A stretch of 64,000 nt of DNA, from assembly GCA_964491915.1 (NCBI GenBank), contig CAZBHS010000030.1, forward strand, positions 653 to 64,652, in the 5' to 3' direction. The notes beneath the pieces were generated by a model that made no database searches, was not told the origin of the DNA, and worked only from the letters and a program-made list of their open reading frames with translations. The stretch's first letter is position 1; every line of letters begins with the position of its first letter. A program made the position numbers and the translations under genes. This document shows, piece by piece, positions 8,570 to 50,379 of the stretch. The DNA comes from an uncultured Clostridia bacterium. GTDB taxonomy: Bacteria > Acidobacteriota > Aminicenantia > UBA2199.

Positions 8570-8916
8570 TGAGCGCTTGTCTGGATTTTTTTTGTAATTA
8601 CAATCATTACTCCCACTCAATGATTGCAATTAATGGACTACAATTTTATACCACCCCAAAGGTAAAAAAATTGAATTTTTCCGCTTTTCTTTGGTTTATC
8701 TCCCCGGCTATAATTGGCGAATTTTTATGAATAATGCGCAAAAAGGACAAAAAAGAATGTGTGAATTTTCTGTTCTACCTGCCCCAAACCAAGGAAAGTG
8801 TTCACTAAATCAGACGAGTTTCCGATTTATCGGATTTAAAGAAATGTAGAAGACTGGAACGGCGCTGCGACATTAGTCCAGCGCCTCCGGTCTTTAATTT
8901 CCCCCAAAATAAAATC

Positions 8917-10743
<1,827 letters not shown>

Positions 10744-10760
10744 ATCTCCCTCCTCAGGTT

Positions 10761-12140: not shown

Positions 12141-12151
12141 GATCTCTCCTT

Positions 12152-13255: not shown

Positions 13256-13385
13256 CTAATATTCCTGTTGGGTTATTTTATCTTCCATTTTGTATGAAAA
13301 ATTATAACACATCTTACACTAAAATAAAAAAGAATGAGTTAAGTTAATCCTGTTTTGCCGGGTTATTGGAATAAATTGACGAGGC

Positions 13386-13421
13386 GCAAACAAGGGGGCG
13401 AATGCTGAAATTCCGCCCCCT
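13386..13421 (-). terminator. Rho-independent terminator candidate after tonB-like gene
   Basis: On the minus strand, AGGGGGCG-(13-nt loop)-CGCCCCCT is followed by TGTTTG. Confidence 0.5.
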
Positions 13422-18641: not shown

Positions 18642-18791
18642 TTCCCAGATTTTGATTCTAGTATTTCTCTCGGTTGCAAACTTTAGTGCAGATCGGCTTC
18701 AGGTGATGCCCACCGTGTGACACCCCTACAAAAGGCCTAAACCCTCACACAGATTGGAATATCCGACTCATCTTGCCTGACTTTGATTGAT

Positions 18792-18810
18792 ATCTCTTGG
18801 CTCGTGAATG
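18792..18810 (+). repeat. 19-nt motif ATCTCTTGGCTCGTGAATG, copy 2
   Basis: Exact copy of 14655-14673. Here it overlaps the putative -35 (TTGGCT) of the CHAT-STAND gene promoter. Confidence 0.9.
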
Positions 18811-18826
18811 TTGTTTGCGTTATAAT
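18797..18826 (+). promoter_or_regulatory. Sigma70 promoter candidate for CHAT-STAND-TPR gene
   Basis: TTGGCT-18 nt-TATAAT. It is followed by a ~60-nt leader containing a small GC hairpin (GCCGGG-gagg-CCCGGC) and RBS AGGAGG before the ATG at 18888. Confidence 0.4.
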
Positions 18827-18887
18827 GGAGAAGATAGTCTGCAACCAAGGACCGGCCGGGGAGGCCCGGCTAAATTTAGGAGGAGCT

Positions 18888-21800
18888 ATGGCGGTGGAGT
18901 TTGACGTTCGGTTTGAATGGAGTAAGGCTGAGGAGAATCTCTGGATGGTGAGAGTGCTGGCGGATGGAAGCGAGGATCGGGGAGAGGTTGATAAAAAGCA
19001 GATCGAGGCGATTGAGGAGGAGTGCAAGCATCTGGATTGGCGGCGGTCTGTTGAGTTGGGACGGAGGATCGGCTCGATATTGTTTCGAGTGATCGATGGG
19101 GACAGGCACGTGTTGAGTGAGGCGTTGAAGGATGCCGGGAATAAGGGAGAGCGGCTGATGATAGGTGTGATGGCCGATGGTCCAGCCCGGCGATGGCCGT
19201 TTGAGTTGTTGTTTGACGATGGTTTTCTCGTTCCCTTTCGAGTGGATCTGGTGAGACGGGTAGAAGACGGGGATAACGATATAAGCATCCAAACGCAGGA
19301 CCGGCAATTGCGGATACTGTTCATGTCTTGCTCGCCTTTGGGCGTTGAGCCGGTGCTCGATTTTGAGCTGGAAGAGGACGCTCTTTACCGGTTTACAGAA
19401 AGCCTTCCGGTTCACATCGATGTGGAGGATACCGGGTCCCTCGTAGGGCTCGATGAACGGCTCGATGAAGAGTACGATATTATCCACCTGTCCGGGCATG
19501 CCGACATCGACCGCGACAATGATTCGCCTATTTTCTTGATGGAAGATGAACTCGGACAACCGGTGAAGGTAATGCCGGAAGAGCTTTCTCGAGTACTATC
19601 TAAAAATTCGCCCCGCTTGCTCTTTTTATCCGGTTGCCGAACCGGCCAGGCGCCGGACGATGCGGCGGCTTATTCCTTTTCCCGCCACATGGTGATGATG
19701 GGAATCCCGGCGGTGATTGGTTGGGGACTCCCGGTCTCAGACGCCGGAGCCATCCAGGCGGCCAGAAAGTTTTACCTGGAGCTTGGGCGAGGCGAAGATA
19801 TTCTCGCAGCCCTTCATCTAACCCGCAGATTCCTCTTCCGCGATAATATCAAAGACTGGTGCCTCCTACGGCTTGAGGCGAACAACCATCATCTAAGTAT
19901 TCCCCTGGTAAAAAAGGGACAGGCTCCTCCCACAAACCCACGACAAACTCTGCATTCCTCCCTCGAAGGCACACAAGTAAAGATACTCGAACGTGGCTTC
20001 ATCGGTCGCAGGCGGCAGATTCAATCGTCGCTCCGTGTACTCAAACATGACGACTCCAAAATCGGTCTCCTGATCCACGGAACCGGCGGCCTCGGCAAAA
20101 GTTGCTTAGCGGGAAAGCTCTGCGAACGCCTCTCGGAGCACCAACTCATCATCGTTCACGGCATCCTCGACTCGATCGCTCTACTCGAAGCCGTCAAAAG
20201 AGCCTTTCAAAAAGCCGGAGACGAAGAAGGGCTGCAAATTCTAGAACAAGCTCTCGAACTACCCGACAAGATGATGATGCTCTGCAACTCAGTGTTTAAA
20301 AAAAAGAGCTGTCTCTTCCTCCTCGACGATTTCGAGCAAAACCTCCCCAACGCCGATAAAGGAGATTTGACTCTCGCCCCCCTGGCGCAAGAAGTACTTC
20401 AAGCTCTACTAAATTCTCTCCCAACCACAAACAAGAAGACCCAGCTCATCATCACCTGCAGATATCAGTTTCCCATGATCACCAACCACTTGCAGCCAAT
20501 GTCGCCGGACAGTTTCCGAGGCCCCGACCTCCAGAAAAAAATCAAAACCCTTGACGCCATCAACCGCTTCTCCGACCCAGCCATCCGGCAGCTCCTCATC
20601 ACCGCCGGCCGAGGCAATCCCCGCCTCCTGGAAGCCCTCGATACCCTCATCAAAGAATCCCCCGATACAGACTTCGAATCCCTCCTCGAAAAAGTCTCGC
20701 ACCAGCAGGAAGAGTTCGTCCAACGCCTGACTCTCCAGCGAATCATCGCCTCCCAACCACCCGATTTCACCCAATTCCTCCGCCACGCCGCAGTTTTTTT
20801 CGCACCTGTCCCCAAACAAGGACTCGAAAACGTCTGCCGCCACATCCCCAACTGGGAATCCCACAATCAAAAAGCCGTCCAGCTCAGCCTAATGGAAGCA
20901 ACCATAGTCGCCAACAACCCCAAAGAGTTCTGGCTCACCCCCATGCTCCGCCAAGAATTATTCGCTCAACTGTCCTCCGAGGCCCAACTAAAATGCCACC
21001 AATCCGCCGTCCAGTATTATCTCCCCCTCATTGAAGAATTAGATGATGATAAACCGCATTCATCCATCCAACTCATCGATCACGCCCTCGAAGCCGACAT
21101 GCCCGACGAAGCCGTCCTCGCCGGCGGCCCGCTGTTGAAATTTTTAGGAGAACATTTGGCCATTCAGCCTGCGCTTTTTTACGGACATGCGATTGCCTCC
21201 GTCGTCTCAGAAGCAAAAAAGACCGAAAAGCTATCACTTTTTTGGACAGAGCTAGGCCTTATTCTCAATCAGACAGGTCATTCGGAAGAAGCCATAGATT
21301 GTTTTTCAAAGTCATTGTATATTGATAAACAAATTTATGAGGAGTATCATCCAGAGATTGCCACAGATCTCAACAATCTGGGTGCAGCATATTCAGAACT
21401 TGGAGATTTCCAAAAGGCAATCGAACTTCATGATCAAGCATTCGTCATCAGCAGACAGATCTACGGAGAGCGGCACCCGGATGTTGCTACCTGCCTGAAC
21501 AGCCTGGGGGCGACTTATAAATTATTCGGAAACTACAACAAAGCGATTGAATTCTTTGAAAAAAGCCTCGCCATCAAAAAGTTGGTTTATGGAGAGGGGC
21601 ATTCAGAGCTTGCCACAGATTTCAATAATCTGGGATCGGCTTATGAAGCGTTTGGTGACTTTCCTAAAGCAATCAACAATTATGAAAAAGCCCTCGCCAT
21701 TGTCCGGGATGTGCATGGAGAGGTACATCCGAATGTTGCCTCAACGCTTTCCAATCTGGGGACATCCTATTATTCTCTAGGCGTTGCTCCAAAGGCGATT

Positions 21801-22310
21801 ATCTTTTTTGAAAATGCCCTTGCAATAATTACTCAGATCTATGGAGAGCACCATCCGCTTGTTGCAACCTTTCTTAACAATCTTGGGGCTGGATACTATT
21901 CACTTGGCAATTTCCCTAAAGCGATTGAATTCTATGATAGAGCCCTTTCTATTGTTCAGGCATTGTATGGAGAAATACACCCACATGTTGCCAGTACGCT
22001 TAACAATTTGGGAGCGGTAAACAATTCTATTGGCGACTATCAAAAGGCCGTCGAATACAGTGCAAAGGCACTTGCTATCGGTAGGCAAATTTACGGAACA
22101 TTGAATCCGAATGTTATCGCTTTTCTAAGCAACCTGGCATCAGCGTATGAATCACTTGAGGAGTACAAAGTGGCGTTCGAATGTGTAAGCCAAATGTATA
22201 AAATTATTTCTGATTTCTTGGGTCCGGATCACCCGAACTCTCAGAACGTTCAAATGGATTTGCATAGGCTTAAGCAGCGGGTAGAGATGGGGGAGTTGTT
22301 GGAAAAATGA
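18888..22310 (+). CDS. CHAT (caspase-like) protease - STAND/NB-ARC-like P-loop NTPase - TPR repeat protein
   Basis: The start was set at the ATG after AGGAGG (MAVEFDV...). The CHAT His/Cys dyad context is IIHLSGHADID and LLFLSGCRTGQ. Walker A is LLIHGTGGLGKSCLAGKL and Walker B is CLFLLDDFEQNL. The C-terminus carries eight 42-aa TPR units. Confidence 0.87.
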   Translation: MAVEFDVRFEWSKAEENLWMVRVLADGSEDRGEVDKKQIEAIEEECKHLDWRRSVELGRRIGSILFRVIDGDRHVLSEALKDAGNKGERLMIGVMADGPARRWPFELLFDDGFLVPFRVDLVRRVEDGDNDISIQTQDRQLRILFMSCSPLGVEPVLDFELEEDALYRFTESLPVHIDVEDTGSLVGLDERLDEEYDIIHLSGHADIDRDNDSPIFLMEDELGQPVKVMPEELSRVLSKNSPRLLFLSGCRTGQAPDDAAAYSFSRHMVMMGIPAVIGWGLPVSDAGAIQAARKFYLELGRGEDILAALHLTRRFLFRDNIKDWCLLRLEANNHHLSIPLVKKGQAPPTNPRQTLHSSLEGTQVKILERGFIGRRRQIQSSLRVLKHDDSKIGLLIHGTGGLGKSCLAGKLCERLSEHQLIIVHGILDSIALLEAVKRAFQKAGDEEGLQILEQALELPDKMMMLCNSVFKKKSCLFLLDDFEQNLPNADKGDLTLAPLAQEVLQALLNSLPTTNKKTQLIITCRYQFPMITNHLQPMSPDSFRGPDLQKKIKTLDAINRFSDPAIRQLLITAGRGNPRLLEALDTLIKESPDTDFESLLEKVSHQQEEFVQRLTLQRIIASQPPDFTQFLRHAAVFFAPVPKQGLENVCRHIPNWESHNQKAVQLSLMEATIVANNPKEFWLTPMLRQELFAQLSSEAQLKCHQSAVQYYLPLIEELDDDKPHSSIQLIDHALEADMPDEAVLAGGPLLKFLGEHLAIQPALFYGHAIASVVSEAKKTEKLSLFWTELGLILNQTGHSEEAIDCFSKSLYIDKQIYEEYHPEIATDLNNLGAAYSELGDFQKAIELHDQAFVISRQIYGERHPDVATCLNSLGATYKLFGNYNKAIEFFEKSLAIKKLVYGEGHSELATDFNNLGSAYEAFGDFPKAINNYEKALAIVRDVHGEVHPNVASTLSNLGTSYYSLGVAPKAIIFFENALAIITQIYGEHHPLVATFLNNLGAGYYSLGNFPKAIEFYDRALSIVQALYGEIHPHVASTLNNLGAVNNSIGDYQKAVEYSAKALAIGRQIYGTLNPNVIAFLSNLASAYESLEEYKVAFECVSQMYKIISDFLGPDHPNSQNVQMDLHRLKQRVEMGELLEK
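21240..22247 (+). repeat. Eight tandem 126-nt (42-aa) TPR-coding units inside the CHAT-STAND gene
   Basis: The recurring unit is ..LNNLG..Y..LG.F.KAIE....AL.I....YGE.HP.VA.. (kinesin-light-chain/TPR_12-like), in phase from 21240 to 22247. Confidence 0.85.
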
Positions 22311-22490: not shown

Positions 22491-23993
22491 ATGAAGCGTG
22501 CAATTTTAGTTTTTTTGATGGTTTGTTTGGCGGTTGTCGATGGCTTGAGTGGGCAAAGCGTCGAGGGGGCGGCGAATCTTTCTGCTGGAGGTGGGAGGGT
22601 TCGGAATGTTCATCCGCGGGTGTTGGTGATGAAGAGCGGGGATGTGATGGCGGTTTGGGAAAGCGGGAGTAGTAAAAGCGATAATGATATTGTTTATAGG
22701 ATTTGGAAGCAGGGGATAAATGTGTGGCATCCGCCGTTGGCGGTGGCGCCGTTTGTGGCTGTGACGGGGATTCGTAACGCGCAGTATCCGCAGTTGGTGG
22801 AAGATTTGGATGGGACTGTGCATATGAGCTTCATGGATGGGGACGCCAGTTATAACCGGGACGTTTATTATTGTTATTATAGAGACGGACGTTGGAGTCG
22901 GGCGGTGAATGTTTGTTCGACACCGGTGAATTCCGCCTGGCCGCGGATTGGTCTGGATGTGGAAGGGGGACGGCTGTATGTCTCGTGGCAACATGAGTGG
23001 AATAATAGGTTTGATGGGAAGGATATCGTTTATGTGACGAAAAAGATTGGAGAGAATGTTTGGAGCGGGATGAAGCGGTTGTCGAATACGCCGGAGCGTC
23101 AGAGCATTCATCAGGCGACGGTTTGTGTGGATGGGCGTCTGCTTGGCGTTTGGATGGACGGGTATTCGGAGCGGGATGTGTGGGGACTGCGGGCCGGCTG
23201 GGTGAAGGATAGTAATGGGAGTCGCGGCGAAGGTGTGCTGGCCGGGCCGGTGGCGGTGCATCAACCGCAATGGCCGGATGTGGCGGCGGACTCTGCGGGC
23301 GATATTTTGGGGATATTTTCGCGGCGGGACGCGCCCCTCGAATTTATATTCAAACCGGTGGATAGGGCGGATTGGCAGACCGGCTTCCTGGCGGATGGCG
23401 GGGGGATTACGTTTTTTGGCGTGACTGTGGCCCGCAATGATGTGGCTTATTGCATGTACCGGCGGAATGTGGGTGATGGCTTTTTGCCGGTGATGATCCG
23501 CTTTGACGGGGAGGTTGTGTCTGAGCCTGAACTCCTGGACCATCCGGCGATTCGACCGGCTGTTTGGCTGGGGCATATGGACGTCGATGTCTCGCTGGAA
23601 GGCAACGCTCATATGGCCTGGAGCTCGGGGCAACCGTCGCATGTGCCGACGGCGGTAGTGTATGCCCGGCAAGCGAGACACCCTGAGGCGCCGGAAGTCT
23701 CCATCGCGGTGACAAGCGGCGTGAACCGGCGATTTGAGCTGCGGGGGCAGCGGGTATCGGGGGATTCCGGGCTGCGTCATCAGTGCTGGTATGTGCCGGG
23801 GTTGGGACTCTGGACTGAAGGGGAGAGGTTGGAGTTGCAACTGCCGGACGATGGGGAGTACCGGGTCTATTATATGGTGGGGGATGGGAATCATTTGTAT
23901 GGATGCGCCGAGACAGCGCTGGGAGCGCGGGAATTTCCGGGGGTGGAGCGGCGTGATGAGGCCTTGCTTCCACAGCGCACGGATAGAGACTAG
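22491..23993 (+). CDS. Secreted repeat protein of unknown function (possibly beta-propeller/sialidase-like fold)
   Basis: 500 aa with signal peptide MKRAILVFLMVCLAVVDGLSG. It has recurring W/Y-rich strand motifs (..VW..G.., DIVY...). Preferred over the R/P/H-rich antisense ORF at 22506-24152. Confidence 0.6.
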   Translation: MKRAILVFLMVCLAVVDGLSGQSVEGAANLSAGGGRVRNVHPRVLVMKSGDVMAVWESGSSKSDNDIVYRIWKQGINVWHPPLAVAPFVAVTGIRNAQYPQLVEDLDGTVHMSFMDGDASYNRDVYYCYYRDGRWSRAVNVCSTPVNSAWPRIGLDVEGGRLYVSWQHEWNNRFDGKDIVYVTKKIGENVWSGMKRLSNTPERQSIHQATVCVDGRLLGVWMDGYSERDVWGLRAGWVKDSNGSRGEGVLAGPVAVHQPQWPDVAADSAGDILGIFSRRDAPLEFIFKPVDRADWQTGFLADGGGITFFGVTVARNDVAYCMYRRNVGDGFLPVMIRFDGEVVSEPELLDHPAIRPAVWLGHMDVDVSLEGNAHMAWSSGQPSHVPTAVVYARQARHPEAPEVSIAVTSGVNRRFELRGQRVSGDSGLRHQCWYVPGLGLWTEGERLELQLPDDGEYRVYYMVGDGNHLYGCAETALGAREFPGVERRDEALLPQRTDRD

Positions 23994-26755
23994 TCTGCGA
24001 AATCGGAGAACTTCTTGCGGTATTCCGATGGACTCATGCCGGTGAATTTCTTGAAGGCGGCGTTGAACACGGACTTTGAATTGAAGCCCACCTCGTAGGC
24101 GATCTTCAAGAGGACGAAGTCTTTCTCTTTGGGATCCAGGAGTTTTTTGCACGCCTCTTCCACCCGGTATTGGTTGAGAAAATTCTTGAAATTCTGCTCC
24201 CGTTCCTCGTTGATGATCTGCGACATCTGCTTGGTGGGAATGGAAAGTCGGGCCGCCAATTTGGCCAGCGTGATGTTGGGGTCGCGATAAGGTTTCTCCT
24301 GAGCCATAAAATCCATGACCCGTTGCAGGTAGACCTGGGATTTGCGGGGGGTGAGGGGCGAATCTTTGTATTTCTCTTTTTGAGGGGGTTCGAACTTTAA
24401 TTGGCGTTTTTTGTAGAATACCAAAAGGATGGCCAGGAAGAAGACGCAGAGAAGCAGCATTTTGAACCAGAAGTTTTGATAGAGGTAGGGGAGGATGGTA
24501 AACTCGACGCTGGAGCCCTTGTAATTCCAGACGCGGTCGTTATTGCAGGCGATGACCTTGAAGCGGAAATCGCCGTACTCCAGCCCGTCGTAGCGGATGC
24601 TCCGTCGCTCCGCTGTCTCGTGCCAGGTCTTGTCGTGACCGAACAGGCGGTAGCTGAATCTCACTTTTTCAGGTACCACTAGACTGGGGGCGGTGTAGTG
24701 GAACTCGATCCTGCCGGTGCCGGCGGGGAAGGTCATGTTATCGGAGACATCCACGGGCACGCCGTCCACCAGCATCTTCTCCAACAGAACATTGGGGCGC
24801 ACTTGATTGAGCTCGATGCCCTCGGGGTAGATGGAGGCTACGCCGTTGATGGTGGGGAAGTAAAGGATGCCCGCCGGACCCTTGAAGCCCGCCGGTTGGC
24901 CGCCGCCGGTGCACACAGCGCTCTTGATGCCGTCCCTTTGCTGAAAGTAGTTGCAGGTCACGGGCCTGGGGTTTTGCGCATCATAGGCCAGCAAGTCTTG
25001 TTTGGGTATATAAAAGATGCCGTTGTTGGAGGACATCCACAATTGGTTCTTGTTATCTTCCAGGATGCGGTAGATCACATTGTTGAAGAGCCCTTGCCCG
25101 GTTTTGAAGACCCGGAAGCGTCCCCGCATGAAACAATTCAAACCGCCGCCGTCGGTGGCGATCCAGACGGCGCCGGAGCTGTCGCAATGGATGTCGAGGA
25201 TGACATTGTCGCTGAGTCCGTGCTCGGTTGTATAGGAGGTGAATTTGCCGGCCCCATAGCTGTGCAATCCGCCGTTGGTGCCGATCCAATAGGTGCCAGC
25301 CGGGTCCTGGGTCACCACAGTGATGAAGTTATCGCGTAGGACGTTGAAGGTGGAGAAATTGCTGAACGAATGGCCGTTGTAAATATAGAGCCCCTGGCCC
25401 TGGGTGCCGATCCAGAGGTGTTTGTTATGATCCTGGTAGAGGCAGTTGATCGCCGGTTGCCGCCGGTAGGGGCGGTATTCCGGGAGGGGGATCTCGATCT
25501 TCTGTATTGTGTCGTTGTCGATGCGGGCCAATCCTTGCCGGGTGCCGATCCACACACCGGAGCCGCCATGGCCGTACACAGTGTAGACAAAATCGCTGGG
25601 CAAACCGTCTTCTTTCCGGAAGATGGCGATCTCGCCTTTGGCGTACCGGTTGAGGCCGCCGCCGTTGGTGGCGATCCACAAGGTGCCGTCCTGCTCTTTG
25701 TAGATGGATTTTATGGAATTGGACGAGATGCCCCGCTCTTTGTCCAACACTGAGAAGCGGCTCTTGTGGAGTTTGTTGAGGCCGTTGCCGGATGTGCCGA
25801 TCCACAGGTTGCCTTCCCGGTCTTCGAACAATTTCATGAGGGAATTGTCCGAGAGGCGGATCTCGTCTTTGACAGATTCCAGTCTTCCGTCCCGGTAGTG
25901 GTTCAAGCCCCCTTCGGTGGCGATCCAGACGAGGCCGTTTTTGTCCTGGATGACGGAGCGGACGAGGTTGTCCGCCAGGCCGTCTTCGATTGTATAGCGG
26001 GAGACGGCGCCGTTTGTATATTTGTTGAGGCCGTTGAGGGTGCCGATCCAGAGGTTATTTTCGTTGTCCTTGAATAGGGAGGTGATGGAATGGCCGGTGA
26101 GGTCGTCGGGGGAGAAGGCGCGGTCGATGGCGCCGTTCTCGAGGATGTCCAGGCCGTTGGCTGTGCCGATCCAGAGGGTTCCGTCTTTTGTGGGTAATAA
26201 TGAATAAACTGTGTCGTCCGACAGGCCGCCGGCGGTGGTGTAATGGTGGAAGCGGCCCCCTTTGAAATAGGCCAATCCGCCGCCGTTGGTGCCGGCCCAT
26301 ATGGTGTGGTCGCTGTCTTCGGCGATGGTCCAGATAAAATCGTTGGATAATCCGTCTTTGGCGCTGTAGTTTCTGAATGTGTGGGTTTTACCGTTGAATA
26401 CCGTGATGCCGCCGCCGAATGTGCCGATCCACAAGGCGCCCCGCCCGGAGATGTGGACGGAGGTGATGGCGTTGTTTTTTATTTCATCGGTGATGTACTT
26501 GTTGTAAATTTTGAAGTTTACACCGTCAAATCTGACCAGTCCGTTGGCGGTGGCGATCCATAGGAAGCCGTGATGGTCCTGGTTGATGTCGTAGATGGTG
26601 TTTTGCGGCAAGCCGTCTTTGTACGACCAGGTGCGATTGAAATATTCCGGCGGCCGGGGAGTGAGGGCGAAAAAAAGGTGGACATTGAGGATGATCGATA
26701 AAACAAGCAATGCCCCTTTTTTCCGGGACCTGTGAATGTCGGCTCTTAGTTTCAT
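23990..26755 (-). CDS. Membrane-bound one-component regulator: periplasmic two-component-regulator propeller + Y_Y_Y domain, TM helix, cytoplasmic AraC-type HTH
   Basis: 921 aa. It has an N-terminal anchor and many repeats of the ..LWIGT..GL..f type. A TM segment (FWFKMLLLCVFFLAILLVFY) precedes a C-terminal AraC HTH (IAYEVGFNSKSVFNAAFKKFTGMSPSEYRKKF). Confidence 0.85.
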   Translation of the reverse strand: MKLRADIHRSRKKGALLVLSIILNVHLFFALTPRPPEYFNRTWSYKDGLPQNTIYDINQDHHGFLWIATANGLVRFDGVNFKIYNKYITDEIKNNAITSVHISGRGALWIGTFGGGITVFNGKTHTFRNYSAKDGLSNDFIWTIAEDSDHTIWAGTNGGGLAYFKGGRFHHYTTAGGLSDDTVYSLLPTKDGTLWIGTANGLDILENGAIDRAFSPDDLTGHSITSLFKDNENNLWIGTLNGLNKYTNGAVSRYTIEDGLADNLVRSVIQDKNGLVWIATEGGLNHYRDGRLESVKDEIRLSDNSLMKLFEDREGNLWIGTSGNGLNKLHKSRFSVLDKERGISSNSIKSIYKEQDGTLWIATNGGGLNRYAKGEIAIFRKEDGLPSDFVYTVYGHGGSGVWIGTRQGLARIDNDTIQKIEIPLPEYRPYRRQPAINCLYQDHNKHLWIGTQGQGLYIYNGHSFSNFSTFNVLRDNFITVVTQDPAGTYWIGTNGGLHSYGAGKFTSYTTEHGLSDNVILDIHCDSSGAVWIATDGGGLNCFMRGRFRVFKTGQGLFNNVIYRILEDNKNQLWMSSNNGIFYIPKQDLLAYDAQNPRPVTCNYFQQRDGIKSAVCTGGGQPAGFKGPAGILYFPTINGVASIYPEGIELNQVRPNVLLEKMLVDGVPVDVSDNMTFPAGTGRIEFHYTAPSLVVPEKVRFSYRLFGHDKTWHETAERRSIRYDGLEYGDFRFKVIACNNDRVWNYKGSSVEFTILPYLYQNFWFKMLLLCVFFLAILLVFYKKRQLKFEPPQKEKYKDSPLTPRKSQVYLQRVMDFMAQEKPYRDPNITLAKLAARLSIPTKQMSQIINEEREQNFKNFLNQYRVEEACKKLLDPKEKDFVLLKIAYEVGFNSKSVFNAAFKKFTGMSPSEYRKKFSDFAD

Positions 26756-42813: not shown

Positions 42814-43596
42814 ATGATGAAGAATGTTTGCTCGATTGTGTTTGCCATACTGATGATGATGTCGTGCCGGCCCGCCGAAGCCGGTTCGCTTGTAATACTC
42901 AATGGCGGAAGCGTCGAATCGCGCTTCGTTGTGCCCGAAGGATTTGTGCGGGTCGCGGCGAAGGAAGATTCGTTCGCCGCCTACTTGCGCCGACTGCCTC
43001 TCGAGGCCGACGGCGCGCCGGTTCTGTATTATGACGGTAGAATCAAGCCCAGGGACGTGCACGCCGCGGTTATCGCCATGGACACCGGCACACGGGACTT
43101 GCAACAATGCGCCGACGCGGTGATGCGGTTGCGGGGCGAATTTTTGTTCGGTCAAAAACACTTCGCCGATATTCACTTCAATTTTGTCGGCGACGGAAAA
43201 CCGCGCTATTACAAAGACCACGCCGATTCCACCCATTCCTACAAAAGCTTCCGCAAATACATGAATTATATCTTCGCCTACGCCAATACCGCTTCCCTGA
43301 AAGCCGAACTGAAGCCGGTGGACTTCGACCACATGAAAATCGGCGACGTGTTCATCCAATCGGGCAATCCCTACGGCCACGCAGTCATCGTCGTTGACAT
43401 GGCCCGCAACCCCGGCACCGGCGCCTTCATATTCCTCCTGGCCCAAAGCTACATGCCTGCCCAAAAGATCCACATCTTACAAAACCCCAACCATCACCGC
43501 CTCACCCCCTGGTACATCTCCACCTTCACAGGCCCCCTCGACACCCCCGAATGGACCTTCCAAAAGACCGACCTCCGCCGCTTCCCTGAAGAATGA
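42814..43596 (+). CDS. Secreted protein of unknown function (DUF4846-like by recollection)
   Basis: ~260 aa with signal peptide MMKNVCSIVFAILMMMSCRPAEA and RBS GGAGGA. The conserved-looking block is GDVFIQSGNPYGHAVIVVDMA. The family name was not verified. Confidence 0.5.
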   Translation: MMKNVCSIVFAILMMMSCRPAEAGSLVILNGGSVESRFVVPEGFVRVAAKEDSFAAYLRRLPLEADGAPVLYYDGRIKPRDVHAAVIAMDTGTRDLQQCADAVMRLRGEFLFGQKHFADIHFNFVGDGKPRYYKDHADSTHSYKSFRKYMNYIFAYANTASLKAELKPVDFDHMKIGDVFIQSGNPYGHAVIVVDMARNPGTGAFIFLLAQSYMPAQKIHILQNPNHHRLTPWYISTFTGPLDTPEWTFQKTDLRRFPEE

Positions 43597-44423
43597 TCGA
43601 AGCTGAATTCGTTTGGCGGCTGGTGGTGTCTGTGTTGGTGGGGGGAGGTGTGATTGCGGCGCAATCGGTGGCGGCTGAGAGATATCCTGAATTCGGCGGT
43701 TTTATCGTCTCCATCCCCACCACATTACCCATGGGACTCTTCTTTATCGGTTGGACCCAGGGAACCGCAGCCGCCATCGAGTCGGCGTCGGTGGTCCCCA
43801 TCTCCCTGGCCAACTGCCTGCTCTTCGCCGCTCTATTCATCTCCGCCGCCCAATGGTCCGGGAGCCGCAAGATGAGAATGATCGCCCCCAACGTATTATC
43901 ACTGGCTGTTTGGTTTATCTTCTCCATCGCCATCATCCGCTTTGCAATAACAGCCCCGATTCCCGGCATCATCGCCTACATCATGGCATTCGTCATCGCC
44001 CACTACGTTCTCTCAAAAAGGGGCAGGCGCCAAAAATTCTCCAATCAAGAGACATCCCATCGTGGAAGCAACCACTCTTCCAATTGGAAACTGATACTCA
44101 TCCGGGCCTGCGCCGGCGGAACAGTCATCGGTACGGCGGTCTTGTTGGCCAAAATCCTGAATCCCCTGTGGGGAGGAATTTTCTCCGTTTTCCCCGCCTC
44201 CTTCATCTCCATCTTCAACATCATCCTCCTGACCCGCGGCCCCCGACTCCTCATCCCCATCGGCGCCACTCTCCCGCAAGGCTCCATCTTCTTCATCCTC
44301 TACATCCTCCTGGCCCACGCCCTCTTCCCCCTCGGCATCCTCCCCGGAACCCTCCTCTCCGAAGCCCTCATCCTATTCTTCATCTATCTAACCATTCTTC
44401 GGAAGAAAAAAAAACACCATTAA
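43593..44423 (+). CDS. Integral membrane protein with internal duplication (two DUF3147-like halves)
   Basis: 276 aa, ~8 TM. The two halves align: RLVVSVLVGGGVIAAQSVAAERYPEFGGFIVSIPTT against LILIRACAGGTVIGTAVLLAKILNPLWGGIFSVFPAS. Its start overlaps the upstream stop (ATGA). Confidence 0.65.
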   Translation: MIEAEFVWRLVVSVLVGGGVIAAQSVAAERYPEFGGFIVSIPTTLPMGLFFIGWTQGTAAAIESASVVPISLANCLLFAALFISAAQWSGSRKMRMIAPNVLSLAVWFIFSIAIIRFAITAPIPGIIAYIMAFVIAHYVLSKRGRRQKFSNQETSHRGSNHSSNWKLILIRACAGGTVIGTAVLLAKILNPLWGGIFSVFPASFISIFNIILLTRGPRLLIPIGATLPQGSIFFILYILLAHALFPLGILPGTLLSEALILFFIYLTILRKKKKHH

Positions 44424-44444
44424 GAAAATTTGAGCGGATTTCTT

Positions 44445-44473
44445 TTGAAAAGTTTTCTCTGAGGGATTATAAT
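44445..44473 (+). promoter_or_regulatory. Sigma70 promoter (near consensus) for the HD/KaiC-like operon
   Basis: TTGAAA-17 nt-TATAAT, followed by RBS GAGGTGA and the ATG at 44499. Confidence 0.6.
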
Positions 44474-44498
44474 TGATATTGTAGATTCGAGGTGAATC

Positions 44499-47186
44499 AT
44501 GATACAAGTTCTCGAGGGAAAACTTCTCGACAAATTAAAGTCCAACGACGATCACGAAGCAAAGAAACTGTATGACAGTCTGATAACCGTTTGCAAGGTG
44601 GTGGAACCGTATATTGATGCGCTTCCCCACTCAAAAGGAAGTCTGACCGGGATCAATCATACCCGGGGCGTCCTACACGAGGTGGAAAATCTGATTTCCG
44701 GCAGCGATTATCTAAACTTGAGCGCGGCTGAGATTTATATCCTTTTGGTTGCGATTTTGATCCATGACATCGGCAAACTGGATGAAGAGGATACTAAAGA
44801 TGAAGAGAAGAATCTTAAAAATAAGCTGAATGAAAAATTTAAGAATTATAAAGAGTTCGTGAGCGAGGCATTGGGGGGGGAATTCTCAACGGCGCAGGTA
44901 GAAAAATTGAGAGTGAAGCCTCATCCCTTGATAAGCGCTTTTAGATTGTTGGATAATCCGCCAAAGTATGGGCTCTTCGACAAAGAGCTTGCCCGTCTAG
45001 TGGCGATTATCGCTCTTAGCCATTGTGACGGCTTTAAATCAAAAGATGCGGAAGAATGTGTCGGCCAATTGACCGAAGACAAGTATCTCGCCCACTATGG
45101 AAAGATTCGGGCTGGCTGGTTATGTGCATTGTTGGTTATTGGAGATGAACTGGATACATCCTATCATAGGGCTCTTCCGGATGATTATGCTTCACGTGGA
45201 TCAGGTGAGGATACAAACGCCAATCTTTCCAAGGGAGAGTTGCGTTCAAATATCGGAGGCTGCAAAACAGATTTTGTCGGACGTTGCATTCGTTTCTACC
45301 CAATCGGGAATCTGAAACGTTTTTCTGTGGAGTCTGATTTAAAAGACGGTTTGTATCAAAAAATTGCTGGCGATGTGAACGGAAAAAATGGCCTATTGAA
45401 AAGTTGGCAAACCGAATTGAAACAAATGCAAATTGATATCCAGGCTTGCCTGATGGAAGTTGAAGGACATTTATTTAAGGTGGTCAAACGAAAGAGCGGG
45501 GATGAAGGGGATCTTAATTCTTCTGGGGCGAGTGTAAATTCGGGTAGCCACGAAGGCTTATATTCTTATTATCCAGCGATGGAACCGATTGTCAAGAAAT
45601 TTAAAGTGAGACGTGTGGTTGAGGCTATGTTCAAACTCAAATATGGTGTTTTTAAAAAGAGTTATTTTTCCTGGGAAATGCTTCAGAGCGAGAGCGGATT
45701 TGAAAACCAGGAGGAGTTGAAGCTGATTGTACATAGAATTAGTCGATTGGCCAGGTTGTTTTCAGAACCACAGAAGCATGAGTTTATATGCCCGGATAAA
45801 AACATTCTGGACTCAATAAAAGTCCCCTTCCGACTTACTATCCAGGCGTTAGATACGGAGTGGACGATTGAAGCTGGAGTAAACCCAAAACGCCTGGACG
45901 ATTCGTTCGATTATTCCGCGATCAGTTCATGGTTTCTATTTTTCATAGAATTCATTGATAGGGAATGGGGTTTAAATGCTTTTTGGACAAAAACTGGAGA
46001 AATCGCGGAAAAATGGGCGGGAGAATTAGGCCCTTCCCTGGTTGAACATAAAGCTGAGACTGCCGGCATAACGGTTGAGAAATTTTTTATACATCCAGGG
46101 AACGAACAGCTTAGCTATTTATTGGATGAAGTCACTCCATGCGGCGGGATCACGCCGCGTGGGATCGAATTTCCAAAATTGGATTCTTTCTATATAAATT
46201 TGAAAGATGAAAAAAATCCCGAAAGTGAGGTTGTCTTCTATCCGCGATTACTAGGAATGAACCTTGTCATCGCAGGGCCTCCGGGGATCGGGAAATCAAC
46301 GTTGGCTCTTGATATTATTTCCAACCTTTCTATGCGAGGCTGCGAAGGAGTGTGTGGAATGAATGCCGGCAGTAATTCCAAAATTGAGACGTGCAAGCGG
46401 GTGATTGCCAATACAGGCGCCGTGGCATATTTTAGCCTTGAACAGCCGATATTTACCATCAAGAATTTGGCGTTACAATTAGGGTATACTGATTCTGCTT
46501 CAAGTAATTCTTTAGAGAAGAAATACCAAATAACGAATGCAGGTTCGCCCCATCCCGAGTATTTCGAAGATTCAATTTCCAATGAGAGTTTCAAGTCCAT
46601 TGTCCAGATATTGGAGTCTAAATCACTCCGTTCTGACGAGGCTAATGGGGATAACCGAGATGACGATGGCGAGGGGGAATACGAATCTCTATTTCGGGAA
46701 AATGATGATTGCAGATTATTGCTGCTGCCTCGGTTGTCCCCCCGCTTTGTGGGCGAGCAGACGGCGGTCAACGAGCGGAAGCTTTTTTGGCAACGGTTCA
46801 AGCAGATTTCCCGGTTGATTGAGTCCTCTGTCTCTGTGACAAAAGGCGATCCTTTTAATAAAAAACGCCTCCATGCGGTGGTGATCGATAACATCAATTC
46901 TTTTTTGAACGAACCGATGGCTCGTGAGTATATATTTAAACTCTTCCGGCTCATTTCATCCAGCGGGCTCCTGGGTATTTATATTCTGGAAGATCCGGGG
47001 GAAATACGAGGTGAGAAAAACAAAGAGGTGGAAGAGGTTCAGTTCCTTTCGGATATCTGGATTGAATTGGGTTGGGCTGAGAAGATGGATTACAAAATGA
47101 AGATGTTTGAGGTAAAAAAGTCTCGGTACCAACGGCATGTATTTGGCTCACACCCCTTTAAAATTAGGTTTCAGGAGAATATATAA
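44499..47186 (+). CDS. HD-domain protein fused to a C-terminal KaiC/RecA-like P-loop ATPase domain
   Basis: 895 aa. The HD-superfamily signature is H54 (INHTRG), H89-D90 (LIHDIGKL), H175 (LSHCDG) and D216 (IGDELD). Walker A is GPPGIGKST (aa 593-601). The Walker B-like motif is LHAVVIDNINSF. The KaiC-family terminal motif is FEVKKSRYQRHVFGSHPFKI. Confidence 0.8.
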   Translation: MIQVLEGKLLDKLKSNDDHEAKKLYDSLITVCKVVEPYIDALPHSKGSLTGINHTRGVLHEVENLISGSDYLNLSAAEIYILLVAILIHDIGKLDEEDTKDEEKNLKNKLNEKFKNYKEFVSEALGGEFSTAQVEKLRVKPHPLISAFRLLDNPPKYGLFDKELARLVAIIALSHCDGFKSKDAEECVGQLTEDKYLAHYGKIRAGWLCALLVIGDELDTSYHRALPDDYASRGSGEDTNANLSKGELRSNIGGCKTDFVGRCIRFYPIGNLKRFSVESDLKDGLYQKIAGDVNGKNGLLKSWQTELKQMQIDIQACLMEVEGHLFKVVKRKSGDEGDLNSSGASVNSGSHEGLYSYYPAMEPIVKKFKVRRVVEAMFKLKYGVFKKSYFSWEMLQSESGFENQEELKLIVHRISRLARLFSEPQKHEFICPDKNILDSIKVPFRLTIQALDTEWTIEAGVNPKRLDDSFDYSAISSWFLFFIEFIDREWGLNAFWTKTGEIAEKWAGELGPSLVEHKAETAGITVEKFFIHPGNEQLSYLLDEVTPCGGITPRGIEFPKLDSFYINLKDEKNPESEVVFYPRLLGMNLVIAGPPGIGKSTLALDIISNLSMRGCEGVCGMNAGSNSKIETCKRVIANTGAVAYFSLEQPIFTIKNLALQLGYTDSASSNSLEKKYQITNAGSPHPEYFEDSISNESFKSIVQILESKSLRSDEANGDNRDDDGEGEYESLFRENDDCRLLLLPRLSPRFVGEQTAVNERKLFWQRFKQISRLIESSVSVTKGDPFNKKRLHAVVIDNINSFLNEPMAREYIFKLFRLISSSGLLGIYILEDPGEIRGEKNKEVEEVQFLSDIWIELGWAEKMDYKMKMFEVKKSRYQRHVFGSHPFKIRFQENI

Positions 47187-48433
47187 TGAAATCCGCCATA
47201 AAAATATTTCTTTCGCTCCATACCCAGATTAGCAAGGCAGAAAAACTGATGCGCCGGGAAAAGACGAAACGAAAAAATTTAAATTCAAAAAAAAACAAAA
47301 CAGGATATTTGGAAGCATTCGGTTTTAAAGAATTAGATAAAGATCTAATCGGGGGGCCGGAATCTCTACCAGCAGATGCCTGTATTTTGCTCAAAGGCGA
47401 AAGGGGAACGCACAAACTCGCGTTTGCGACAAACTATCTTTTTCAGGGGCTCCGAAAAGGGGAAAATGTAGTCTTGTTCAACATGGGGGCTCCAGTTAGA
47501 ATCGACAAGATTCCCCAATTTAAAGATGAGCCTTGCAAAATAAAAGATTCGAACGGATCCTGCAGTGGCGGAAGAATTGAATTCAATGAAAATTTATCCT
47601 ATCAAAAGCTTTTGAAAAAAAATCCCAATGGGTTGAAAAAAACTGATGCCGAGCAAAATCAAGAAAAAAACTTGGCCTACTATCCCTATAAGCTTAGTAA
47701 TAAGGATAATTCCCAAACGAGGGAAAGTCCTCCGGTAGGAAAATACAAACTGCATTGGTGGGTTTCGAATAAGGATTTCTCTAAGAATTCGAAAAAAGAG
47801 GAGGGAGTGAGCGCTCTGCTTAAGAATCACGGAAATCTTTTTATTCTTGATTTTGACGCAGGTTACTTGTTCCCGGAAGAATTTATTTCGACGCTAACAG
47901 AATTCTGGGGCTGGATTGATAGGCTGGCTCCCCGTAATTCAAAAGGGAAACGGAACTTTTTCCCATTTACGCGGGTCCTTTTGAATTCCACCGCCCAGAT
48001 CAACACTCAATTTCCTATTTTAGCGGAGGAACAATTTTTGATTCCGTCGTTTATCCGCCTTGCCAAATGTTATGGGATCAGTTCTATGATAATTGATGTC
48101 CTACCGCCAGGGGGGGAGCAATCAAAAAATTCATTAAATTTCGACGCTCTTTCGGATTTAATCATTACCATTAAACACAATTTTGATAAAAAGTATTCTG
48201 CTAAAGGTGCATTATCAGAAGGTGTGAAGGAAGATGCCATGAAAATTATGACGGCCGACAATATAACTGGCAAGGTATATAGCAAAAATTGGCTCGGCTT
48301 TTGGATCAGTAAAAACGACCTGATCAGCATTTTTAATTTCGTTGATGCTGAAAAAAGCAAAGATATTGAAAAGCTTCAGCCAAAACGGAAATTACTCTCT
48401 AGACGCGGGTCAAAATCTATTATTCGGCGTTGA
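47186..48433 (+). CDS. KaiC/RecA-like domain protein with degenerate nucleotide-binding motifs (probable pseudo-ATPase partner)
   Basis: 415 aa. Its start overlaps the upstream stop (TAATG). The N-terminal part follows the KaiC domain start ([54 protein letters not shown]). However, Walker A reads GERGTHKL and the Walker B position reads RVLLNS. A Lys/Asn-rich insert is also present. Confidence 0.6.
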
Positions 48434-49700
48434 GAAGGTAGTAGTTTTTTTTGCCTTTTTGGATGAGGATGAATTTGTCGTTCAGGAGGTGGGAGGCGTC
48501 GATGACGGCTTCGGCGGAGGTGACTTTGGATTTGTTGACGCTGAGGCCGTTGTTTTGGATCATGCGGCGGGCTTCGCCTTTGGAGGCGAATACGTCGGTT
48601 TTTTCAGCCAGGAGTTCGAGAACGTCGATACCGTTTTGTAGTTCAGCGCGGGATACTGTTGGTTGAGGGACGCCTTCGAAGATGGCCAGGAGGTCTACCT
48701 CCGAGAGTGTCTTCAATGATTCGGTGGTCCCTTTGCCGAAGAGAATCTGCGACGTGTCCACAGCCGCCTGGTGCTCTTCTTCCGAATGAACCATGACGGT
48801 GAGCTCGCGGCCCAGGGTTTTTTGCAATAACCGTGCGTGCGGGGCTTCGCGGTGTTGGGCGATGAGGTCGTCGATCTCTTGTTTGCCCAGCATGGTGAAG
48901 ATCTTGATGTAGCGTTCGGCGTCTTCGTCGCTGACATTGAGCCAGAACTGGTAGAACTGGTAGGGAGAGGTGTAGCGGGGGTCGAGCCAGACATTGCCCT
49001 TTTCGGTCTTGCCGAATTTTCCGCCGTCCGCTTTGGTGATCAAGGGACAGGTGAGAGCATAGGCTTCGCCGCCCTCTTTTCTGCGGATCAATTCAGAACC
49101 GGATGTGATGTTGCCCCACTGGTCCGAACCGCCCATCTGCAACTTGCAATTTTTATGTTTATACAGGTAATAGAAATCATAAGCCTGAACCAATTGATAG
49201 GAGAATTCCGTAAAGGAGAGGCCGGTCTCCAGACGCTTTTTCACTGAATCTTTGGCCATCATGTAGTTGACGGTCATATGTTTGCCGATGTCGCGGATAA
49301 AGGCCAGGAAATCGTACCCTTTCATCCAGTCGTAATTGTTGACCAATTCAGCGCCGTTCGGACGTTCGGAATCAAAGTCCAACAATTTTTCCAATTGTCT
49401 TTTCAATGCGTCCTGGTTTTTGCGCAGCGCCTCTTCCGGCAGGAGATTGCGCTCTTCCGATTTGCCCGATGGGTCGCCGATCATACCGGTGGCTCCGCCT
49501 AATAAAGCGATGGGTTTATGCCCCGCCCGCTGGAAGTGCTTGAGTAACATGACGGACACCAGGTGACCGATGTGAAGGGAGTCTGCCGTTGGGTCAATTC
49601 CGACATAGGCGCTCACCATCTCTTTCTTCAATAATTCATCTGTTCCCGGCATGATGTCGTGTATCATGCCGCGCCATTCTAATTCGCTTATAAAATCCAT
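48420..49700 (-). CDS. tyrS: Tyrosine--tRNA ligase
   Basis: 426 aa with HIGH motif (HIGHLV), KMSKS-type motif (KFGKT) and a C-terminal S4-like domain. Confidence 0.96.
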
Positions 49701-49760
49701 TGTTCCTACTCTTTCGCTTTTTTTTGAGAATTTACCCCGGGGCTCGATGGTGTGTTAGCC

Positions 49761-49796
49761 AAAAAAAAGGCCGGTAAATCTTACGATCTACCGGCC
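49761..49796 (-). terminator. Rho-independent terminator after the oxidoreductase operon
   Basis: On the minus strand, GGCCGGTA-(12-nt loop)-TACCGGCC is followed by TTTTTTTT. Confidence 0.75.
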
Positions 49797-49833
49797 GGTG
49801 ATAAAATTTCGAGTCCGTTCGGGCTTCTTTATT

Positions 49834-50379
49834 TTATACTAATTGTTGGCCCAATTCAATGGCTTTCATGTTCAGGTCAACATAATCCTTAGGCGCCCAG
49901 TGTTTGATGTGCTCCACCATGTTGTCGTAGCTGATGATACCGGTGAGTTTCTGGGTCATTGAAAGTGTGACGACTGAGGTGAGGACAACGTTTCCCAACT
50001 GCCGTTTGGTTTCATAGATGATGGGAACCTGGTGCAATTTCCAGTTGGAGGTGTCGCCGAGATTCTTGACCAGATGGGAGTCTACCACGACAATGGCATC
50101 GTCTTTCAGACGTTCTTTATAAAGGTCGTAAGGTTTTTGGAATGTGCAAATGAAACAATCGATGGCCATGGCCTGTGGGAATAGAATCTGACGGTTGGAA
50201 ACAATCACATCCACTTTGGTTGGGCCGCCCCTGACGGTGGCGGTGTATGTGGGGCTTTCCAGAGCGTATTTTTTTTCTTTTTCGACCGCGATATCCACCA
50301 GAAGGGCGCCGGCTGTAATAATACCCTGTCCGCCGACAGCCGCGTACCTGATTTCGTATCTATCGTTTAGACATTTCAT
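49834..50379 (-). CDS. korC: 2-oxoacid:ferredoxin oxidoreductase gamma subunit
   Basis: 181 aa with a Pyr/2-oxoglutarate:Fd oxidoreductase gamma-like start (IRYAAVGGQGIITAGALL). It is the last gene of a D-A-B-C ordered operon. The symbol rests on gene order only (Kor/Oor-like); substrate is unproven. Confidence 0.82.
   Translation of the reverse strand: MKCLNDRYEIRYAAVGGQGIITAGALLVDIAVEKEKKYALESPTYTATVRGGPTKVDVIVSNRQILFPQAMAIDCFICTFQKPYDLYKERLKDDAIVVVDSHLVKNLGDTSNWKLHQVPIIYETKRQLGNVVLTSVVTLSMTQKLTGIISYDNMVEHIKHWAPKDYVDLNMKAIELGQQLV

Follow-up and report, generated by a model that had tools for sequence, protein, structure and literature searches.

A rare two-gene module pairing an HD-CE/KaiC-type ATPase protein with a predicted pseudo-ATPase partner: a candidate conflict system beside tyrS in an Aminicenantia genome

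What might a bacterium do with an HD phosphohydrolase fused to a KaiC-like ATPase when a second KaiC-like protein, apparently devoid of its catalytic residues, is encoded directly downstream? The question is raised by two overlapping genes, here gene 1 and gene 2, which lie with their putative promoter at 44445-48433 of a 64,000-nucleotide stretch of contig CAZBHS010000030.1 (assembly GCA_964491915.1), from an uncultured member of the Aminicenantia; the whole of this stretch is called the window. A sequence-only reading had presented the pair as a candidate defence or signalling module. The reading that we favour, and to which we give an even chance, is by analogy that of a self-contained, rare conflict (anti-mobile-element/anti-phage) module in which a KaiC-like switch would gate an HD effector. 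The two genes behave as accessory genes: they are rare, have a low GC content at third codon positions (GC3), evolve fast and have decayed in one lineage. Support for the assignment to the defence class is circumstantial and comes from contexts, composition, evolutionary rate and decay.

44499..47186, + strand: gene 1, 895 amino acids, with an HD-CE domain, a middle region and a KaiC-type ATPase domain (open reading frame, Pfam, alignment)
47186..48433, + strand: gene 2, 415 amino acids, predicted KaiC-fold pseudo-ATPase partner (open reading frame, homologues, AlphaFold/Foldseek)

Since homologues of both proteins at 45-63% identity keep the motifs, these are real genes and not chance reading frames. 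The two reading frames, their TAATG overlap, the convergent 14-nt overlap with tyrS and the positions of the motifs all agree with the earlier description. Gene 1 divides into three parts.

44499..45203, + strand: HD-CE phosphohydrolase domain, residues 1-235 (Pfam match at 49-233)
45204..46178, + strand: middle region (MID), residues 236-560, about 325 amino acids, family-specific, mixed alpha/beta
46179..47183, + strand: KaiC/RecA-type ATPase domain, residues 561-895, interrupted at about 650-740 by a variable acidic insert (about 90 amino acids)
46275..46301, + strand: Walker A GPPGIGKST (G593-T601; K599), invariant in close and distant alignments
46440..46442, + strand: E648 in FSLEQP, at the RecA/KaiC catalytic-Glu position after strand beta-2, invariant
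46869..46892, + strand: Walker B LHAVVIDN, with D797 invariant

Regarding the N-terminal part, the Pfam model HD-CE (PF24391) matched with 63.1 bits (E 4e-17, cut-off 27), and in precomputed annotation the same match is common to all gene 1 homologues; the generic HD model PF01966 gave an E-value of 0.04. The metal-ligand motifs H54, H89-D90 (LIHDIGKL), H142, H175 and D216 are invariant in alignments of 9 and of 20 sequences, H142 being an addition to the signature recognised at first. Judged by these ligands (H...HD...D), gene 1 encodes a metal-dependent phosphohydrolase of the HD superfamily. Apart from this, the HD part resembles only weakly the HD domains of Cas3 and Cas10, which are of the nuclease type (PADLOC, NCBIfam).

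At the other end of the protein, the Pfam model KaiC (PF06745) scored 42.1 bits (cut-off 26.6) over residues 788-890, covering profile positions 117-220 only. The Walker A segment matches generic P-loop families only, because the acidic insert of about 90 residues, variable among relatives, splits the domain. Both the HD and the KaiC-type assignments of gene 1 thus hold by curated thresholds. From the order of the KaiC/RecA motifs we infer that E648 would be the catalytic glutamate, and the C-terminal motif KKSRYQRH..HPFKI is also invariant in the family alignment. The invariance of the HD and ATPase motifs extends to relatives at about 31% identity, and because of it both domains look catalytically competent.

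Between the two lies the MID. The sequence-only reading had recognised no motif in some 330 residues here, and residues 236-560 indeed gave no Pfam match even at E<=10 and no match among PDB sequences. The most conserved non-catalytic motif of the protein sits in this region (YFSWEMLQSE.GFE...LK.IVHR.SRLA), which always accompanies the HD domain in relatives and was modelled by AlphaFold with a predicted local distance difference test score (pLDDT) of about 65-85 across most of its length. The AlphaFold model of the whole protein reached a pLDDT of 61, the ATPase domain and the C-terminus being poor, and Foldseek returned nothing significant with it.

Gene 2 presents a different picture, with KaiC-like positions occupied by the wrong residues.

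47186..47254, + strand: N-terminal helix, conserved in the alignments (a motif of 21 letters)
47396..47416, + strand: degenerate P-loop G71-E-R-G-T-H-K77, with the second Walker A Gly replaced by His and the Ser/Thr after Lys by Leu/Phe
47480..47482, + strand: N99 in VLFNMG, at the catalytic-Glu position of KaiC-type domains, aligned to the KaiC CII segment
47519..47725, + strand: Lys/Asn-rich insert, about residues 112-180, of varying length and sequence among homologues and lower pLDDT
47984..47986, + strand: N267 in LLNST, at the Walker B Asp position, nearly invariant

By sequence, the protein stays below the thresholds of the family: it scored 19.2 bits with Pfam KaiC (cut-off 26.6; residues 46-97 only) and 24 bits with NCBIfam KaiC_arch_3 (cut-off 249), and comparisons with KaiC sequences of the PDB, by sequence or profile, gave E-values of 0.017-0.11. 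The fold prediction is clearer. The AlphaFold model, built on a 25-sequence alignment, has a pLDDT of 76 and a predicted template modelling score of 0.80, and its top Foldseek hits are the CI and CII domains of KaiC, the archaeal KaiC-like PH0284 and DnaB, all with a probability of 1.00; nearly all of the top 50 are KaiC (E 1e-6 to 4e-5; template modelling (TM) score about 0.6 against single-domain targets). On this model, gene 2 is predicted to adopt the KaiC/RecA fold. An alignment of the gene 2 family with the ATPase domain of gene 1 by hhalign was not significant, so that paralogy of the two is supported by the fold and cannot be claimed from sequence.

None of the hallmarks of an active P-loop nucleoside triphosphatase (NTPase), namely GxxxxGK[ST], the catalytic Glu and the Walker B Asp, is present in gene 2. 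Its P-loop glycines, H76, K77 and N99 are nevertheless invariant, both in the family and in fused relatives. The claim that gene 2 is an inactivated KaiC-like partner is therefore upheld, mainly by the predicted fold together with the invariant substitutions at catalytic positions; the Lys/Asn-rich insert, noted before, is there and poorly conserved. Across the wider superfamily introduced below, H, F, Y or C stands in place of the second Walker A Gly of the gene 2-type domain (G2) wherever the motif could be read (the pattern search gave no reading in 18), with His in the HD-linked classes and Phe or Tyr in the class ATP-G2-X. Because this bulky replacement spans the readable superfamily, the pseudo-ATPase state appears to be ancient and selected.

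One could argue at this point that the ATPase is a motor and not a switch. RecA-superfamily hexameric helicases are sister groups of KaiC, and an HD domain joined to an ATP-driven motor is the arrangement of Cas3. A ring translocase or helicase of the RadA/Sms or DnaB kind could then feed the nucleic acid of an invader to the HD nuclease, and the DnaB hits of the gene 2 model, weak matches of gene 1 to DnaB_C and RadA and the weak similarity of the HD domain to Cas3-HD are all in line with it. However, the best profile for the gene 1 ATPase is KaiC (E 8e-11, compared with 0.025 and 0.059 for DnaB and RadA), one of the two tandem halves is an obligate pseudo-ATPase, which would be unusual in a ring motor, and Pfam recognised no DNA-binding domain. 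We consider defence by such a motor-nuclease unlikely.

The same ATPase pair also recalls DNA repair. JGI names the homologues ‘KaiC/GvpD/RAD55 family RecA-like ATPase’, and recombination is known to employ pairs in which one RecA-like protein is active and the other inactive (Rad55-Rad57); a RadA/Rad55-like pair with an HD nuclease might thus act as an accessory at DNA ends or stalled forks. Against this, the RadA/Sms model TIGR00416 gave 12.1 bits (cut-off 403), no Zn ribbon or Lon-like domain was found with Pfam, no linkage to repair genes was seen, and the family is much too rare and patchily distributed for such a function, with one lineage holding a decayed copy. A role in repair is very improbable.

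The pair should be understood as a unit, and its relatives show how tightly the parts belong together. Among 5.8 billion proteins, the gene 1 family comprises 9 clusters from Aminicenantes- or Acidobacteria-type metagenome bins, with 8 full-length relatives at 47-63% identity and a truncated one (P0009); a second search of the family gave 15 clusters. Gene 2 has 9 homologues, each directly downstream of a gene 1 homologue, and in the four other intact loci of the split form (L001, L003, L005 and L006) gene 2 follows at once. When 1.84 billion representative proteins were searched exhaustively with a profile, 694 relatives emerged, 41 of them with E<=1e-30. We mapped the architectures of 174 proteins with our own sub-profiles for HD, MID, ATP (the gene 1 ATPase domain) and G2. 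Single chains of the order HD-MID-ATP-G2, 1000-1330 amino acids long, account for 31 of the 174, HD-MID alone for 25 and ATP-G2 for 38. Metagenome loci add fused genes (L098-L101) and splits between adjacent genes at other places: HD-MID / ATP-G2 in L097, HD / ATP-G2-X in L102 and HD / ATP / G2 in L103.

This series of fusions and fissions argues strongly that the parts work together, presumably in equal amounts. The single-chain relatives hold both KaiC-type domains, which bears out the proposal that a double-domain KaiC is here split over two polypeptides; and since the linker between their domains, FPSLHTQVSR.EK, matches the helix at the N-terminus of gene 2, the gene boundary of the window is a domain boundary.

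The P-loop set limits to some of these searches. In 185,579 species-representative genomes none of 600 pattern matches was confirmed, in a scan that was probably saturated by the generic P-loop pattern. Scans of the metagenome and viral collections with the full alignment were likewise saturated, and a sub-alignment excluding the P-loop was used instead. The single viral hit, L095, had a match spanning the P-loop only.

A larger sister group emerged from the same survey. Its members (class D, or ATP-G2-X; P0060-P0166, e.g. P0078 and P0103) are proteins of about 1100-1500 amino acids with an active KaiC-like and a pseudo-KaiC domain, the P-loop of the latter reading G..G.[F/Y]K. Their C-terminal region of about 500 residues is conserved (CWYSQLR...LPG.GF[RK]GDW.LGI..GSVS...YKRF) and has no Pfam or PDB match. 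When terminal extensions of at least 200 residues beyond the four sub-profiles were clustered, 55 of 62 fell into one cluster. A resemblance of the class D extension to a solute-binding-protein domain found no support in searches of Pfam or of PDB sequences. In L102 the gene of a class D protein follows an HD-domain gene.

Does the company of these genes tell what they do? Across about 15 independent contexts the module keeps no neighbour in common, and hence it is self-contained; its homologues do not sit consistently in kai or radA/repair operons, and no KaiB- or KaiA-like gene was found in any of these neighbourhoods. Genes of defence systems or mobile elements lie within 5 kb in 5 of the approximately 15 contexts, a raw count taken without a matched background. 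In L005 a complete Septu pair (PtuA 7e-117, PtuB 2e-64) lies 3.7 kb upstream of the module. Directly upstream in L100/L104, an MqsA antitoxin, PLD, Mrr and a SEFIR/TIR-methyltransferase protein (bSEFIR 5e-41) make up an island. L011 presents DruA, an IS66 transposase and group II intron reverse transcriptases, and L008 a Prok-E2/E1/JAB and metallophosphatase cluster near the module. In the latter (3334-13402), the Prok-E2_A/ThiF/Prok-JAB protein, the metallophosphatase and the fused module have a GC3 of 0.31-0.36, compared with 0.45-0.59 for the other genes, and this shared, very low GC3 suggests a single acquired island. Toxin-antitoxin genes (HicB, ParE, PemK) occur in three further contexts. 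Matches of neighbours to PD-T4-6, mad6 and mad2 were left uncounted, as they reflect generic kinase and methyltransferase domains.

The closest tie to a known immune locus is that of L105. Here the fused gene has cas6 on one side and a CRISPR array of eight repeats on the other, and runs in the same direction as the cas genes; beyond the array follow cas2, a stand-alone reverse transcriptase, a 781-amino-acid AEP-TOTE primase that has a Mu-Gam-like domain, and cas1. The locus opens with a gene for a fusion of a CARF (Cas_APE2256) protein and an HD-CE domain. L105 (1-14459, JGI Ga0104751_1005981) is an unusual type III CRISPR locus, which also encodes a 551-amino-acid RAMP protein. Such a setting would fit a type III CRISPR ancillary effector dependent on cyclic-oligoadenylate signalling, of which the window copy would be an orphan. 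But the link is found in 1 of about 15 loci, the nearest relative of the fused copy, 63% identical, has none, and the window contains neither a CRISPR array nor cas genes. No CARF or SAVED domain was detectable with Pfam in the module, and two recent surveys of CRISPR-linked genes mention no such gene. This origin for the module has the slimmest chance of all the explanations given here.

How long, then, has the module been where it is? The sequence-only reading took it for an inserted cassette. Its composition is indeed foreign: the GC content is 0.435 in gene 1 and 0.395 in gene 2, compared with 0.556 in the membrane gene upstream and 0.518 in tyrS, which agrees with the AT-richness first noticed. 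GC3 is 0.46 and 0.41, respectively, against 0.57-0.73 in the flanks and a mean of 0.589 (standard deviation 0.082) in 40 other reading frames of the window. The module was below its housekeeping flanks in GC3 in all nine loci measured, for example 0.39-0.46 versus 0.71-0.81 in L001 and 0.47 versus 0.61-0.66 in L007. The part of the claim that did not hold is a recent insertion. In three genomes (the window, L006 and L001) the module adjoins tyrS and POR genes, and the window shares with L006 and L001, respectively, 89% and 74% identity in tyrS, 66% and 55% in gene 1, and 61% and 54% in gene 2, with the same branching order for module and tyrS. Neither direct nor inverted repeats, tRNA genes or Rfam elements mark an insertion at its flanks. 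Given the shared site at 74-89% tyrS identity, the common branching and the lack of repeats, we conclude that the module is a long-standing resident beside tyrS. Within the neighbourhood, gene 1 and gene 2 are the fastest-evolving pair, with 66% and 61% identity compared with 89-97% for tyrS and POR.

The adjacency to tyrS is confined to this lineage. The module is absent from all 80 Bacteroidota tyrS loci examined, but at 66-72% identity these are too distant for a comparison of synteny. Among species-representative genomes the tyrS of the window is closest to those of Bacteroidota (66-72%); the homologues of the module are labelled Aminicenantes or Acidobacteria.

The module has also decayed in one lineage. 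The decayed copy, at 10001-12931 of L093 and in L094, lies between two giant nonribosomal peptide synthetase genes in an Aminicenantes metagenome-assembled genome (GCA_050049735.1). Of gene 1 a remnant of 598 amino acids is left, without HD motifs I-II or the Walker A segment; gene 2 has come apart into reading frames of 60 and 302-316 amino acids; the same decayed structure recurs in three independent assemblies.

These results bear on the possibility that the module has nothing to do with conflict and is a signalling or stress switch, in which the KaiC-like ATPase and the pseudo-ATPase would regulate an HD phosphodiesterase acting on a nucleotide second messenger. Makarova, Galperin and Koonin reportedly proposed in 2017, in mBio, that archaeal KaiC-like ATPases are signal-transduction hubs. 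The copies of the window, L006 and L007 have housekeeping genes as immediate neighbours and are stably inherited, a GGDEF protein is encoded 2.7 kb from the module in L102, and the much larger ATP-G2-X sister family carries no effector-like domain. The top Foldseek hits of the HD part are cyclic-nucleotide phosphodiesterases, although non-significant (E>0.06). On the other hand, no kinase, response regulator, KaiB or cyclase lies beside the module in any locus, and rarity, patchiness, atypical composition, fast evolution, decay and contexts in defence islands or CRISPR loci would be unusual for a core regulator. We regard a purely regulatory role as improbable, with perhaps one chance in several.

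Returning to the reading of a conflict module, the following sequence of events can be proposed. The active and the dead KaiC-type domains would assemble as a hetero-oligomer, after the stacked hexameric rings of KaiC. A cue of infection would be sensed through the MID, the pseudo-ATPase (its pseudo-P-loop pocket) or both, and would trigger binding or hydrolysis of ATP in the active domain. The ATP cycle would in turn license an otherwise silent HD domain, which might degrade nucleic acid or the nucleotide pool and thereby stop the invader or the infected cell.

Several points weigh against this reading. The oligomeric state, the gating logic and the substrate of the HD domain are what we infer by analogy. 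The stable adjacency to tyrS across substantial divergence amounts to a slower turnover than defence islands usually show. The immediate surroundings are housekeeping genes in the window, L006 and L007, and those of L106 are essentially housekeeping or metabolic. The neighbourhood count is a raw one, and CRISPR is associated with one copy only, whose closest relative lacks the link. Searches of viral contigs with the sub-alignment excluding the P-loop found no family member, and tblastn searches of plasmid and phage collections with gene 1 found no match. The larger ATP-G2-X sister family could equally be one of signalling proteins. The defence candidacy put forward by the sequence-only reading keeps circumstantial support from neighbourhoods, composition, fast evolutionary rate and decay, and is weakened by the housekeeping contexts.

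The known roles of KaiC-type ATPases are in clocks and in signalling, and no experimentally characterised defence system built around one was found in PADLOC v2 or in the searchable literature. We give equal measures of belief and doubt to the proposition that the module is an NTPase-regulated nuclease or phosphodiesterase type of conflict system on an ATPase fold not tied to immunity before. More tentatively, and somewhat short of an even chance, it could be the first immune system on the KaiC fold: a timer- or threshold-like, ATP-driven oligomer that would sense infection and unleash an HD-CE nuclease or phosphodiesterase, occurring in fused and split versions in several bacterial phyla, taken up on at least one occasion as a CRISPR-associated gene, and nested within a larger double-KaiC superfamily with the conserved pseudo-P-loop G..G.[H/F/Y]K. 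Should the module prove to be an immune system, the known STAND, ABC, AAA+ and superfamily 2 (SF2) regulators would be joined by a new type of NTPase; the Pfam domain HD-CE would gain a role and the conserved pseudo-ATPase domain an explanation; and a superfamily of several hundred uncharacterised double-KaiC proteins would be opened. The fusion/fission series supplies natural single-chain, two-gene and three-gene versions. Even if the module serves signalling, the combination of an ATP-gated HD enzyme and an obligate dead paralogue would make a tidy model of pseudo-enzyme regulation.

The signals for expression and the gene junctions of the module in the window are the following.

44445..44473, + strand: putative sigma-70-type promoter, with -35 TTGAAA at 44445-44450, a 17-nt spacer and -10 TATAAT at 44468-44473
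44489..44494, + strand: ribosome-binding site GAGGTG of gene 1, 5 nt before its ATG, as read from the sequence
47173-47177, + strand: ribosome-binding site AGGAG of gene 2, within the end of gene 1 and 8 nt before the start
47184-47188, + strand: TAATG stop/start overlap, in which the A of the gene 2 ATG is part of the gene 1 TAA
48420..49700, minus strand: tyrS, convergent, its 3' end sharing 14 nt with the 3' end of gene 2

The promoter-like element TTGAAA-17-TATAAT matches the consensus at 11 of 12 positions and is the top such site within 43500-49900. The AT-rich module region, however, over-represents these sites (18, compared with 8.9 +/- 3.5 in shuffles), and for this reason the module's own promoter, a near-consensus match as had been claimed, is plausible but unproven. 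From the stop/start overlap and the internal AGGAG, gene 2 is predicted to be translationally coupled to gene 1; an overlap of 1 or 4 nt between the two genes recurs in L001, L003, L005 and L006.

In the window, the immediate flanks are DUF4846, a membrane protein gene and tyrS. The membrane protein (43593-44423, 276 amino acids, multi-pass, GC3 0.72) lies between DUF4846 and gene 1 and has no Pfam match. Its gene is missing from the otherwise syntenic L006, where DUF4846 directly precedes the gene 1 homologue, and it is outside the module.

Farther away in the window, a probable defence island lies at 14749-22310, about 22-30 kb upstream of the module. It comprises a 1069-amino-acid Eco57I/MmeI-like N6-adenine methylase (of the type IIG restriction-modification kind), an overlapping reading frame of 227 amino acids (17958-18641) and, at 18783-22310, a protein of 1175 amino acids with CHAT (caspase-like), AAA_16 STAND and TPR parts. 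A second stretch of low GC3 (0.43-0.46), at 1909-8103, encodes an S-adenosylmethionine methyltransferase, an ABC-2-type membrane protein and two proteins of about 220 amino acids without a match to any family; this stretch, too, may have been acquired. At 23990-26755 lies a Reg_prop/Y_Y_Y/AraC hybrid regulator. Outside the window, in L106 (4521-5809), overlapping genes for an HU-like DNA-binding protein and an ADP-ribosylglycohydrolase stand directly upstream of the fused homologue P0029, and could form a small conflict-related pair.

Finally, we compared the module with the systems that it resembles. In PADLOC-DB v2.0.0 no system was matched by both proteins: gene 2 had no hit and gene 1 weak hits only, and representatives of all four architecture classes likewise gave weak hits only. 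In the searchable literature on KaiC in connection with anti-phage defence, CRISPR accessory genes and conflict systems, and on HD-CE, no account of the module was found. The first impression that it corresponds to no named defence system has thus survived, with weak similarity to mad8 and Cas3-HD as the nearest approach; an earlier description outside that literature is possible, and the curated Pfam entry HD-CE shows that curators had noticed the HD domain.

The only PADLOC model found on the gene 1 ATPase is mad8 of MADS (E 1e-7, 29.9 bits, residues 587-837), a weak match that concerns the P-loop ATPase only. MADS is an eight-gene operon, mad1-mad8, with a methyltransferase, and none of mad1-7 adjoins the module, which does not belong to it. 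MADS is a defence system shown by experiment (bioRxiv 10.1101/2023.03.30.534895).

With Cas3 and Cas10, the module shares an HD phosphohydrolase coupled to an NTPase and the five-motif pattern H / HD / H / H / D. The PADLOC similarity to Cas3-HD ranges from E 7e-4 to 3e-6 (18-25 bits), and the Cas3'' model TIGR01596 gave 17.9 bits, below its cut-off of 43.45. In contrast to the SF2 helicase of Cas3, the motor-like part of the module is of the RecA/KaiC type, and Cascade or crRNA components are lacking. The CARF-HD-CE proteins of type III CRISPR loci (Cas_APE2256 plus PF24391), one of which accompanies the fused homologue in L105, belong to the same HD-CE family but have a CARF sensor as regulator instead of a pair of KaiC-type domains. 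The two HD-CE domains are distant (BLASTP E 0.056; no match to the family-specific HD profile). That HD-CE is also found on a CARF sensor suggests that it is a regulated, potentially toxic immune effector.

Septu PtuAB, Gabija and PARIS are alike in the logic of an effector plus an NTPase, in the compact, self-contained operon and in the sporadic distribution. They differ in using an ABC/AAA_15-21 ATPase and an HNH or TOPRIM nuclease, where the module has KaiC/RecA and HD domains, and no profile match connects them. A further resemblance is that to Rad55-Rad57 and the Rad51 paralogues, which also combine a competent RecA-fold subunit with a degenerate paralogue, but are eukaryotic recombination mediators lacking an effector domain.

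The archaeal KaiC-like ATPases (PH0284, ArlH/FlaH) are close in fold and family. PH0284 (2dr3) superposes on the gene 2 model with a TM score of about 0.55-0.60, and FlaH and KaiC_arch are the best NCBIfam matches of gene 2, far under the cut-off (24 versus 249 bits). The module differs from them in being bacterial, in its fusion to an HD effector and in its obligate pseudo-ATPase partner.

KaiC itself consists of tandem RecA-like domains, CI and CII, that form a double-ring (stacked) hexamer. Clock-KaiC scoring gave 16.4 and 13.6 bits, against a cut-off of 408 for the equivalog NF006799, so that the module falls outside the clock KaiC family. Unlike KaiC, the second domain is dead in all readable members, KaiA and KaiB are missing, and an N-terminal HD domain, the MID of 325 residues and a 90-residue acidic insert in the ATPase are added. 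What the module has in common with KaiC is the fold family of both ATPase-like domains and, in the single-chain relatives, their tandem order, an arrangement that the window module carries split over two polypeptides.

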